A stretch of DNA of 64,000 nucleotides. It comes from a virus (Duplodnaviria > Caudoviricetes). The notes below the pieces were generated by a model. It saw only the letters and a list, made by a program, of their open reading frames with translations, was not told where the DNA came from and made no database searches. This document shows positions 3,117 through 64,000 of the stretch, piece by piece; within the stretch, counting starts at the first letter, position 1, and every line of letters begins with the position of its first letter. Position numbers and translations under genes: made by a program. The DNA lies in IMG/VR virus record IMGVR_UViG_3300032327_000792, one strand, 5' to 3'.

Positions 3117-3145
3117 ATTGTAACGCTGATGCCGTTTCTGGTCAA
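3117..3145 (-). promoter_or_regulatory. sigma70-type early promoter TTGACC-17-TACAAT
   Basis: -35 at 3145-3140, -10 at 3122-3117, 17-bp spacer. Confidence 0.75.
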
Positions 3146-3231
3146 CCAGAGTTGTCCATAGATCGCGCCTTAGTTTATAGCTGCGTAAGTGCTTGATTTT
3201 TAAGCGTTTTTTTATTGTTCTTTTGTTGCAG

Positions 3232-3567
3232 TTACGCAACACCGTAATACATCGCATCTAATTCTGCCATTGCTTCTGCTTGCTCACGCTCGCGTTCTTG
3301 GGACAACCACTGAGCTTGTTGGGCTAATTCTGGGTTGGGTTCTTCGATGATCCAACCTTGCTCACGCAATTGCTCACGACCTTCAAATGTCTGTTTGAGC
3401 TGGTCCATTTGATCGTGTAAAAGATTGATTTGAATCACTAGATATTGTTTACTGTTCCACTCAGTGGCGGATGCAAATCTTGGACGGAAGCCGTTGAAAT
3501 CTTTGTGTAAATCACTATAGTAACCCTGTAATTCTTCTACTGAAAAATCTTTAAATTCACGTACCAT
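3232..3567 (-). CDS. small hypothetical early protein (start MVREF at 3567)
   Basis: GGAG RBS and its own promoter; YSDLHKDFNGFRPR resembles a motif recurrent in small phage proteins. Confidence 0.7.
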   Translation of the reverse strand: MVREFKDFSVEELQGYYSDLHKDFNGFRPRFASATEWNSKQYLVIQINLLHDQMDQLKQTFEGREQLREQGWIIEEPNPELAQQAQWLSQEREREQAEAMAELDAMYYGVA

Positions 3568-56901: not shown

Positions 56902-57146
56902 TTTATAGTCTCCAGTTGGCGTTTCCTACTATACTAGCTTTTTGAGCTAGTTTGTTAAAATCCTTTGCCGTGAAAATTCGCGGCTATGACTTATTTACCA
57001 TGGCCTGGTGATTTTGAGCTATGCTGATTGTATTTTGGTGATATTTGCTCTGGAGTGAATTGGTGTTACTGACTAGACAGCGGTGGTCTTTGAGGGTGCA
57101 ATATATTTATCGTTAGATCATAAATTCAGTGAGTTAGCTGAGATTT

Positions 57147-61447: not shown

Positions 61448-62032
61448 TTAAAGATCCTTTTGATTATTTATGCGGTCCAAGAAAGTGTGCATGGGCAAAT
61501 GCACAAGGTTTTTGATAGTGGCAAATTCCGCTATGTCCGCTGTGGTTTTGCCTTGCACTCGCACAAACTGTGTTTGGGGAAAATCTTCACAAATTCGACG
61601 TATTTGTTTGGTCCAGTTGCCGGTGAACACCGGGGTTGCATCAGACTTTCTGTAAAAGTCGGTGTCAGCATATACGTTGTTGAATCGATTGTTCACTGGA
61701 CCCATGTCAAACCCAATCATGTAGATTACACGATGTTGATCTATGGCTGCTATGCCTGTGGCCAACGGACCGGAACTGTAGCCGTAGTATTCGTGTGGAA
61801 CTTTTAATGCACCTTGATTTTCCGTGGGTTTTCGTGTGTAAAATTTGTTGTTGATAGCATATCCAGAATTTTGTATTTCTGCGGAAATAGGGCGATCTGT
61901 GGCAACCAATACATCGGGCACAAAATCTCTATACAAAGCATTACACCCATAAATTTTTCCAAGCGGGCGCAACAGTGCCAAATCAACTGCTTGCCTGCTC
62001 ACTCCGTTGCCTAGTACAAATGCTGTGGTCAT
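61448..62032 (-). CDS. Maf/GT42/MptE-like GNGxS-motif protein (putative glycosyltransferase)
   Basis: AFVLGNGVSR, IYGCNALYR, LVATD, SSG..A..IA....IYMIGFD. Confidence 0.5.
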   Translation of the reverse strand: MTTAFVLGNGVSRQAVDLALLRPLGKIYGCNALYRDFVPDVLVATDRPISAEIQNSGYAINNKFYTRKPTENQGALKVPHEYYGYSSGPLATGIAAIDQHRVIYMIGFDMGPVNNRFNNVYADTDFYRKSDATPVFTGNWTKQIRRICEDFPQTQFVRVQGKTTADIAEFATIKNLVHLPMHTFLDRINNQKDL

Positions 62033-62064
62033 AAAAAATCCCCACAGTACTTATTGTGGGGATT
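62033..62064 (-). terminator. terminator whose loop holds a late-promoter-like ATAAGTA
   Basis: AATCCCCACA-ATAAGTAC-TGTGGGGATT stem plus T run ending at the next ATG. Confidence 0.7.
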
Positions 62065-62080
62065 GTTTGGTTGGTCAAAA

Positions 62081-62839
62081 TTAGCTGTTGTAGTTTTCTA
62101 CAATTGCTAGATCTAAGTTACCATTGGCCAATTGCTCTGAACCGTTGGTGCCCCATGTGTCTGTTTCGGCACCAGACTTGACAGTTGTACCTTCGTCACT
62201 GAAGAAGTTGGCTGCAAATGCCACGTTGTCAACTGTGTCTGTTGCTGCCCATACATCACCTGTGTCTGCATTGCCACCCACAGCACCACCAGCAAAGTTT
62301 TGCAAGAACTTGTTGGTCAACTTGCTGATTGCTGTTTCTGTTGAGTCATTGCTGAAGTAACTGATACTCATGTTGCCAGCTGTTGGCGTCAAGTCACTGG
62401 TCAATACACACTGACCCACTGCGTTCACACGACCTGTTCCTGTGTTGGCCAATGCTGCTGTGGCAGTAAACACATCGCCTGCTGCTACATCACTACCGGC
62501 ACCATAAGTTGCCCAGTTTGTGTCACCAACCACAGTGACACGATAAGCTGATCCTGCGACCAATGCTGTACGAGCTGTGATTCCGCCCACTAGATACTTG
62601 TGTGAGCCTTTTTGACGGATAATATAACCATCTTCTTCGGCAAAGCCAGTGATGAACACACGGCATTTGACTGTGGGATATGTGGCTGTGTCCACTGTGT
62701 TTGAACCACCAACAACACCAAGATATTCTGTGTTGTTGTCAAACACTGGTGATGGTAATACTGGAGCTGTTAGCCCGGCTAATGCATTGAAACCAATGTC
62801 ACTGGTTGTAGATTTTTTGATTTTTAGAGGACGACCCAT
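62081..62839 (-). CDS. hypothetical virion protein (MGRPLKIKK... family)
   Basis: Late motif, structured leader and AAGGAG RBS; YIIRQKGSHKYLV motif. Confidence 0.7.
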   Translation of the reverse strand: MGRPLKIKKSTTSDIGFNALAGLTAPVLPSPVFDNNTEYLGVVGGSNTVDTATYPTVKCRVFITGFAEEDGYIIRQKGSHKYLVGGITARTALVAGSAYRVTVVGDTNWATYGAGSDVAAGDVFTATAALANTGTGRVNAVGQCVLTSDLTPTAGNMSISYFSNDSTETAISKLTNKFLQNFAGGAVGGNADTGDVWAATDTVDNVAFAANFFSDEGTTVKSGAETDTWGTNGSEQLANGNLDLAIVENYNS

Positions 62840-62866
62840 TTTGTTTTCTCCTTAAAGAAGTCCGAT

Positions 62867-62923
62867 CCGGGTTCTAGCCGGTACGCAGGGGTTCGAAGCC
62901 TGCATAAAACGCCGAATTGCGTT
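62867..62923 (-). ncRNA. candidate cis-regulatory structured 5' leader (three abutting hairpins)
   Basis: AACGC/GCGTT, TATGCAGG/CCTGCGTA and CCGG/CCGG stems between ATAAATA (about 62935) and the RBS. Confidence 0.5.
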
Positions 62924-62982
62924 GACAAGTATTTATGGTTGGACAAATATTTTAGTCAGTTAGGTGTTAATTAAATAAAGTT

Positions 62983-64000
62983 ATGAGTACCAAATTAGAA
63001 CTAGAGCACTTGATCAATCAAGGCAACACAGCCAGAGCCGAAAACAATCCAGAGTTGGCGTTGAGATGCTACGCTCAAGTCATGATTGAAGACCGTGGCC
63101 ATGCTGGAGCATTTTGCAACTACGGCAATGTGTTGCGCGAGTGTGGAGATCCCCAGGGTGGCATACCATTTTTACAACGAAGCATACAGTTGGATCCCAC
63201 TAACTCAATAACACAGTTTAACTTGGCTGTGGCCTATTTGTTGGCCGGAGACTATGAGCGTGGTTGGGCACAGTATGAACATCGATGGAATTTTGAACAC
63301 CTGGCCGGTGCACTGCCCCAATTTGAACAACCACGCTGGACTGGTCAAAACATACAGGGCAAAACAGTGTTGATTGTTGGTGAACAAGGTCACGGCGACA
63401 ACATACAATTTGTGAGATTTGTGGGCGACGTTGCGGCTCGCGGAGCAAAGGTTGTGCTAGTGGTTGATCCTGCATTGATACCACTGTTCCGAATTGCGGC
63501 CATCTCCGACATTGTGGCATTTAATCAACCGTTGCCGCCTTTTGATTACTGGACTCCAATCATGAGTATTCCCGGCATCATTGGATCAACCTTGCAAAAT
63601 CTTGCACTGGTACCTTGTTATCTCGGCGCTGATCCTGAACTGCAACAGGCCTGGCTGACCAAACTGGGTCCAAAAACACGATTGCGTGTGGGATTCTGTT
63701 GGTCGGGTCGTAGAGACACCTGGATCAATCGTCACAAAGGCATGCCGTTTGACACCATGTTGGCCTTGATCCAACAGAATCCCACGTATGAATGGATCAA
63801 CTTACAGTGCGACTGCACTGCAGAGGAAGAATTGGCATTGGTTCGGGCCGGAGTACGGGCTTATCCGGGCAGTATCAAAAACTTTGCTGACACAGCAGCC
63901 TTGATGATGAACACGGATGTGATATTGGCAGTGGACACTGCTGTGGCACACTTGGCTGGGGCCTTGGGTAGACCCACCGGTGTTATGCTGAGTCAGTTTG
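62983..64000 (+). CDS. TPR-repeat + GT9-like (GT-B) glycosyltransferase, truncated at the window end; absent from the ORF track
   Basis: Manual translation: MSTKLELEHL...TPRs...GWAQYEHRW...EQGHGDNIQFVRF...VGFCWSG...FADTAALM...D.I.AVDTAVAHLAGALG.P. Confidence 0.85.
   Translation, partial: MSTKLELEHLINQGNTARAENNPELALRCYAQVMIEDRGHAGAFCNYGNVLRECGDPQGGIPFLQRSIQLDPTNSITQFNLAVAYLLAGDYERGWAQYEHRWNFEHLAGALPQFEQPRWTGQNIQGKTVLIVGEQGHGDNIQFVRFVGDVAARGAKVVLVVDPALIPLFRIAAISDIVAFNQPLPPFDYWTPIMSIPGIIGSTLQNLALVPCYLGADPELQQAWLTKLGPKTRLRVGFCWSGRRDTWINRHKGMPFDTMLALIQQNPTYEWINLQCDCTAEEELALVRAGVRAYPGSIKNFADTAALMMNTDVILAVDTAVAHLAGALGRPTGVMLSQF

Follow-up and report, generated by a model that had tools for sequence, protein, structure and literature searches.

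Closest described leader RNAs and identity of the motif

In the rpsO operator of E. coli, a hairpin loop pairs at the start codon, initiation depends on the state of the resulting pseudoknot, and S15 acts as the repressor. The E. coli thrS operator is an anticodon-arm mimic. Among phage leaders, that of T4 gene 32 contains a pseudoknot that lies far upstream and nucleates the binding of gp32. The locks of T4 soc, e and 49 are single hairpins over the Shine-Dalgarno (SD) sequence, which late transcripts avoid. A further leader motif, freshwater-2 (Rfam family RF02980), is to our knowledge only found in aquatic metagenomes and not in classified organisms; it is located upstream of genes of unknown function, and we know of no mechanism that has been proposed for it so far. 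It reportedly originates from the comparative screen of 224 motifs by Weinberg et al. in 2017. The motif is not named in the main text of that screen (PMC5737381), and our literature search found no paper that discusses it.

The leader analyzed here precedes a gene for a protein starting with MGRPLKIKK (hereafter the MGRP gene) in a viral DNA stretch of 64,000 nucleotides (IMG/VR record IMGVR_UViG_3300032327_000792), which was analyzed as a whole and is called the window below. It is a full-length copy of the already catalogued motif of unknown function RF02980. A cmscan search against Rfam 15 matched freshwater-2 (type Cis-reg) at 62924..62837 on the minus strand with 67.5 bits, against a gathering score of 49.9, and the match extends over all 84 positions of the model (1-84), with an E-value of 1.3e-9 for a search of 2 kb and of 4e-8 for the whole window. 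RF02980 is the sole Rfam family above threshold in the 64 kb. Its consensus alignment has three consecutive hairpins with an invariant UAUGC...GCGUA and CUAGAAC, as in the window. The SD and the AUG lie inside the model, which ends at the AUG (62839-62837), an arrangement common to about 180 copies. The window leader and freshwater-2 thus belong to the same family without any difference in kind, both with an A-rich SD region followed by the AUG.

The first-pass annotation of this DNA had proposed a candidate undescribed cis-regulatory RNA and had named a match of Infernal against Rfam as the outcome that removes its novelty. That match was found, so the novelty is removed and ‘undescribed’ has to be dropped, the leader being RF02980 at full length and above the gathering score. 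The designation as a cis-regulatory leader stands and is supported by covariation, by a fixed position between promoter and SD, and by strict linkage to one gene family. Taken alone, the locus therefore matters little, as the motif is already catalogued and novelty is low. What the relatives described below add to RF02980 is a context, consisting of T4-like jumbo phage carriers, a late promoter box before the first hairpin and the MGRP/MAR gene family.

Organization of the locus

The MGRP gene is separated from a divergent TPR/GT9-like gene by a gap of 143 nt. On the minus strand, this gap consecutively contains ATAAATA, six bases, hairpin P1, UU, hairpins P2 and P3, a linker of 13 nt, AAGGAG and the AUG. 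The features are as follows.

62930..62936, minus strand: T4-type late-promoter-like box ATAAATA, predicted from the enrichment of TAAATA at gene starts and the fixed spacing to P1
62923-62919 / 62912-62908, minus strand: hairpin P1, 5 bp with a 6-nt loop, AACGC-AAUUCG-GCGUU
62906-62899 / 62889-62882, minus strand: hairpin P2, 8 bp, UAUGCAGG-CUUCGAACC-CCUGCGUA
62881-62878 / 62870-62867, loop 62877-62871, minus strand: hairpin P3, 4 bp, CCGG-CUAGAAC-CCGG
62854..62866, minus strand: linker AUCGGACUUCUUU, containing CUUCU at 62860-62856 and conserved only in the clade of the window
62848..62853, minus strand: SD sequence AAGGAG, 8 nt before the AUG, read from the sequence and nearly universal in the family
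62839-62837, minus strand: AUG start codon of the MGRP gene
62081..62839, minus strand: MGRPLKIKK gene, 252 aa
62031..62064, minus strand: intrinsic-terminator-like hairpin and T run directly after the MGRP gene, from a sequence scan

The window is 93% coding, and 22 of its 45 TAAATA sequences precede a gene on the same strand at a distance of 5-130 nt from its start, an enrichment that fits T4-type late promoters. The distance between box and ATG is mostly 5-31 nt (66 nt in one case) for the other late genes with a TAAATA box; a distance of 91 nt is found only for the MGRP gene and for a gene encoding a 1706-aa protein. Among 144 distinct relatives, the end of the box is mostly 6-9 nt away from P1. 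The T4 late promoter box spans positions -13 to -6. By analogy with this geometry, the predicted transcription start lies around 62924, 0-1 nt before P1, and given the spacing of the box P1 would form the very 5' end of the mRNA.

At the other end of the gene, terminator-like sites are present 3' of the coding sequence in 89 of 136 distinct relatives. The terminator hairpin of the window (62031-62064) scores on both strands in the scan. A sub-threshold match to the ‘trpB motif’ at 62028-62104 (29.6 bits versus 59) was rejected, as it merely reflects this terminator hairpin.

Structure and covariation of the three hairpins

The three hairpins had been described at these coordinates before, and they are correct as placed, on the minus strand. 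They had also been said to follow each other with essentially no spacers and to be GC-rich inside AT-rich surroundings. Indeed, the spacer between P1 and P2 is only UU and P3 follows P2 directly, and the G+C content of P1-P3 is 57.9% compared to 25.4% for the rest of the intergenic gap. The folding energy of the single sequence is no better than that of shuffles (z = -0.32). Since the single-sequence fold does not go beyond chance, the case for a structure rests on comparison.

For this comparison, 97 distinct copies were aligned with a covariance model (CM). In this set, 93.4% of the alignment cells are paired, with 86.9% for P1 and 96.4% for P3, and the covariation score is 0.498, compared to 0.125 for shuffled alignments and at most 0.096 in slid registers. 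Compensatory changes are present in all five pairs of P1, all four pairs of P3 and both variable pairs of P2, and this is also the case in a MAFFT alignment; pair 6 of P2, for instance, is GC in 58 copies, AU in 27 and UA in 12. Covariation among homologues, which the first-pass annotation had put forward as a check, is thus found for all three stems, the about 180 copies being derived from uncultured phage contigs. A scan for mutual information (MI) ranks the pairs of P1-P3 on top and yields no further helices beyond them. In addition, 126 of 144 distinct upstream regions have a hairpin with 5 bp or more immediately next to P2, where 24.6 are expected from shuffles.

The base of P2 (UAUGC/GCGUA, including a U.G pair) and the P3 loop CUAGAAC are invariant in all copies, an invariance that exists by construction in the loci found by pattern and is an independent observation in those found by protein. 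The apical loop of P2 carries CC(C) on its 3' side. The strand is fixed by the invariant U.G pair of P2, because the opposite strand would have an A.C mismatch in its place. Compared across the copies, the sequences demonstrate a conserved three-hairpin RNA on the sense strand with a fixed place between the promoter box and the SD.

Distribution and carrier phages

Among the products of the window are a tail sheath (phrog_10581, E = 2.7e-211), a tail tube, a large terminase and several fibre-like proteins, and a protein identical to the MGRPLKIKK protein is on record in a contig of 310 kb. These virion genes and the 310-kb contig identify the carrier as an uncultured jumbo myophage. It is a T4-like lake phage with a genome of about 310 kb. 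No match to the DNA of the locus or its protein was found among the INPHARED phages (blastn, tblastn).

A protein-based scan of IMG/VR yielded 80 loci with 53-90% identity, and the leader is present in all 63 protein-found loci with enough upstream DNA. A pattern scan on the invariant core yielded 120 stretches. About 117 of these represent true copies, and in each of them an SD and ATG GGN (CGN/AGA) CCN come next. Altogether, every one of the about 180 copies has a T4-type late promoter box (TAAATA) just upstream, and a strong ribosome-binding site and an MGRP/MAR gene downstream. Each of five complete or near-complete phage genomes, with a size between 318 and 525 kb, contains one copy. A 64-kb viral contig (L087) has two freshwater-2 copies at 1427-1515 and 3145-3232, 1.7 kb apart, which precede paralogues of 297 aa (MGNALKIRK) and 460 aa (MGRPLKIAK).

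In a collection of prokaryotes with one genome per species (185,579 species), only two true copies were found, both in one metagenome-assembled genome (MAG) of Haliscomenobacter. These copies, L249 and L276, are located on NZ_JBBAKG010000001.1 and NZ_JBBAKG010000003.1 of Haliscomenobacter sp., contigs of 183 and 148 kb. As these are the only two copies in the prokaryote collection and both lie on large MAG contigs, the motif belongs to phages. The two contigs are probably a jumbo phage in the bin and are at most a weak hint to a host.

Probable pairing of the P2 loop with the start codon

The loop of P2 can pair with the start codon and the codon following it. This pairing is absent from the RF02980 covariance model as used, and its two strands in the window are proposed from the covariation between the loop and codon 2.

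62889..62892, minus strand: ACCC of the P2 loop plus the first stem base, proposed 5' strand of the pseudoknot
62834..62837, minus strand: GGGU (the G of the AUG plus codon 2), proposed 3' strand of the pseudoknot

The pairs in the window would be A62892-U62834, C62891-G62835, C62890-G62836 and C62889-G62837, giving a duplex of -5.8 kcal/mol; the last of them requires opening of the top pair of P2. In most relatives, CCCA can pair with UGGG, including the U and the G of the AUG. The proposed pseudoknot is thus short (3-5 bp).

The loop changes together with the second codon. Among leaders of the GGG type (n = 129), the trinucleotide of the P2 loop is CCC in 104, GCC in one and AGC in one, versus CCC in five, GCC in 11 and AGC in 14 of the leaders of the GCN type (n = 31, targeted scan). 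A scan for second codons of the form G[ACT]N gave 50 loci, all of them encoding ‘MAR...’ with GCA or GCU, and no copy was found in a scan for second codons that do not start with G. In one clade, the loop changes from UCC to AGC exactly where GGA changes to GCU. Three lineages hold both GGG and GCN types, with matching loop switches. Across 45 lineages, nine GCN states are compensated and four are not, the latter including the UCCA clade and locus L322, and these counts overstate the number of events because related sequences are not independent. The comparison hence shows covariation of the P2 loop with codon 2, with support that is good and not unanimous, and the loop probably pairs with the start codon. 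This covariation points to a pseudoknot over the start codon and, with it, to translational control.

The first-pass annotation had suggested a translational operator as well, with CUUCU pairing over the SD. An operator is plausible, albeit through a different pairing, namely that of the P2 loop with the start codon. CUUCU (62860-62856) can indeed pair with AGGAG of the SD (62853-62848), but the helix is weak (-1.1 kcal/mol), is confined to one clade and never varies there. It is absent from the minimum free energy (MFE) fold of the predicted transcript, in which the SD is unpaired. In an alignment of 141 rows, it is present and invariant in about 76-86 rows, all of one clade, and is gapped or absent elsewhere; it has no informative covariation in these rows and is missing in the short-linker clades. 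The linkers of other clades are unrelated or very short. Two other pairings involve the linker. The P3 loop AGAA can pair with UUCU of the linker (-1.5 kcal/mol), with a loop that never varies and a UUCU that is missing in several clades. Pairing of GGAC/GGGC in the linker with codons 3-4 (GUCC), which occurs in the MFE fold, was rejected because it is lost in relatives with AGA as their Arg codon; the MI signal linking columns 54 and 110/111 of the alignment resembles clade structure.

Proposed mechanism and alternative explanations

We consider it rather likely that the RF02980 copy is the 5' leader of a monocistronic late mRNA, in which a pseudoknot formed by the P2 loop with the start codon gates translation of the MGRP gene. 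Transcription from the TAAATA late box would start immediately before P1, which would then cap the 5' end of the message. Terminal hairpins of this kind protect mRNAs from 5'-end-dependent decay, and a terminal P1 may protect this mRNA likewise. P2 and P3 would stack directly on each other, and their invariant nucleotides are a candidate binding site for a specific partner. CCC of the P2 loop would pair with the G of the AUG and the Gly codon, forming a pseudoknot that encloses P3, the linker and the SD. In doing so, the pseudoknot would hold the start codon and thereby control the initiation of translation of the MGRP gene.

Provided that the pseudoknot exists, the leader would work like the rpsO operator, its nearest working analogue. 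The sequences of the two are unrelated, and S15 is the known repressor there, whereas a phage late gene with a candidate partner only is concerned here. The leaders of T4 gene 32 and of soc, e and 49 are comparable in that all are phage leaders in which RNA structure close to the initiation region governs translation and folding depends on which promoter is used. Unlike with the soc, e and 49 locks, the late transcript of the window itself contains the structure. An orphan Rfam family would thereby be placed as the leader of one family of late genes, mostly with one copy per genome; this leader is predicted to start at the late transcription start and probably closes over its own start codon.

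The partner of such a leader might be the product itself, which would bind the P2 base and the P3 loop and lock the pseudoknot, resulting in S15-style autogenous control of an abundant virion-region protein in aquatic jumbo phages. We regard this extension as tentative and, on balance, unlikely. The product is a candidate factor only because the MGRP gene is the one constant neighbour of the motif, and the constant parts it could contribute are only its basic, AT-hook-like N-terminus MGRPxxK and an SH3/Tudor-like barrel.

A constitutive leader with neither switch nor partner, in which the hairpins stabilize a very abundant late mRNA and keep the SD free, is doubtful as an explanation, although several features of the locus agree with it: P1 is located where the 5' end is predicted, the SD is strong and remains unpaired in the MFE fold, and both a promoter box and a terminator are dedicated to the gene. 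Yet a generic stabilizer needs neither an invariant 7-nt loop, nor an invariant stem base with a U.G pair, nor a loop that covaries with codon 2, and these persist across phages whose proteins share less than 30% identity.

We find it quite improbable that the leader is instead an operator for a trans-acting protein other than the product, such as a late regulator of the phage or a host protein, with the pseudoknot being secondary. The concentration of the invariant nucleotides in P2 and P3 would suit such an operator, as would the short-linker clades, in which P3 ends 2-5 nt before the SD and thus within reach of the 30S footprint. No regulator is linked to the motif, however, and the MGRP gene is its only constant neighbour.

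A riboswitch sensing a small molecule is very unlikely. Like a riboswitch, the 5' leader is conserved and structured and has invariant nucleotides beside the SD, but its three simple hairpins merely follow one another, without a multi-helix junction or internal loops that could form a pocket. Moreover, it precedes a late virion-region gene of a phage and not a metabolic or transport gene, and nothing suggests a ligand.

Recognition of the leader by a tRNA-binding enzyme, as a mimic of a tRNA or an anticodon arm, is largely refuted and hardly credible anymore. The P3 loop C-U-AGA-A-C had been noted for its likeness to a 7-nt anticodon loop, and this part holds, as the loop is invariant and fits the pattern Y32-U33-NNN-R37-N38; its stem, however, has 4 bp instead of 5. 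A second likeness, that of UUCGAA in the P2 loop to a T-loop, turned out to be peculiar to this phage, as its relatives have other loops. ARAGORN detected no tRNA or tmRNA (0 tRNA genes), and the leader, which has no closing or acceptor-like stem, does not have the make-up of a tRNA, namely a cloverleaf with an acceptor stem, a T arm with a conserved T loop and a 5-bp anticodon stem. The tRNA-mimic fragment of the first-pass annotation is therefore abandoned, and the Rfam match is likewise to a cis-regulatory leader and not to the tRNA clan. The thrS operator resembles the leader in having a 7-nt loop with the U33/R37 pattern close to the SD; in contrast to thrS, the window leader has no downstream synthetase or tRNA-related gene, a stem of 4 bp and no other tRNA-like feature.

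Finally, a protein-binding or recombination site acting at the level of DNA would account for the high conservation of the primary sequence, which extends to the neighbouring promoter box and the initial codons, but it has almost no chance of being correct given that compensatory changes preserve pairing and that G.U pairs, among them the invariant one of P2, can form only in RNA of the sense strand.

The downstream MGRP protein and its gene neighbourhood

The 252-aa protein has 2977 relatives at E <= 0.001, and the open reading frames downstream of the copies encode between 117 and 512 aa. Even where these proteins are less than 30% identical between phages, the leader is kept. They share only the N-terminus MGRPxxK, a stretch ‘[IV][IV]xQxG..[FY]xV’ and a stretch ‘KL..R’. 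For the MGRP protein, no Pfam family was found even at E <= 10 and no PHROG family; a sequence search of the PDB, Foldseek against the PDB, VIA-align and the ESM Atlas gave nothing specific, and a BFVD search returned uncharacterised phage proteins only. Its AF2 model has a pLDDT of 82.6 and no PDB match. In the short form of the protein, the conserved core of about 45 residues resembles a small barrel of the SH3/Tudor type (Z 5-5.9), a common arrangement that proves nothing on function. Some relatives carry the JGI label ‘HicA/YcfA-like’, which reflects only a short KGSH-like stretch, the His of which is not conserved in the family. One family member of 373 aa (L137:993-2111, minus strand) has a C-terminal PA14/GLEYA carbohydrate-binding domain (E = 5.4e-13), which suggests that the variable C-termini are displayed outside the particle.

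Two further genes flank the MGRP gene in the clade of the window: a Maf-like gene follows 49-55 nt after it in 114 loci, and a TPR/GT9-like gene divergently precedes it in 82 loci. In the window they are located as follows.

61448-62032, minus strand: Maf/DUF115-like gene (phrog_30607)
62983-63999, plus strand: TPR and GT9-like gene

As no separate TAAATA box precedes the Maf-like gene, it may be transcribed by read-through of the terminator. The MGRP protein is a possible target of glycosylation.

The gene encoding the 1706-aa fibre-like protein has the second long leader of the window, at 56902-56997 on the minus strand, with its TAAATA box 91 nt before the gene. It has no Rfam match. With a folding energy of -22.4 kcal/mol (z = -2.44; 4 of 200 shuffles are as good), this region may represent a separate conserved leader RNA.
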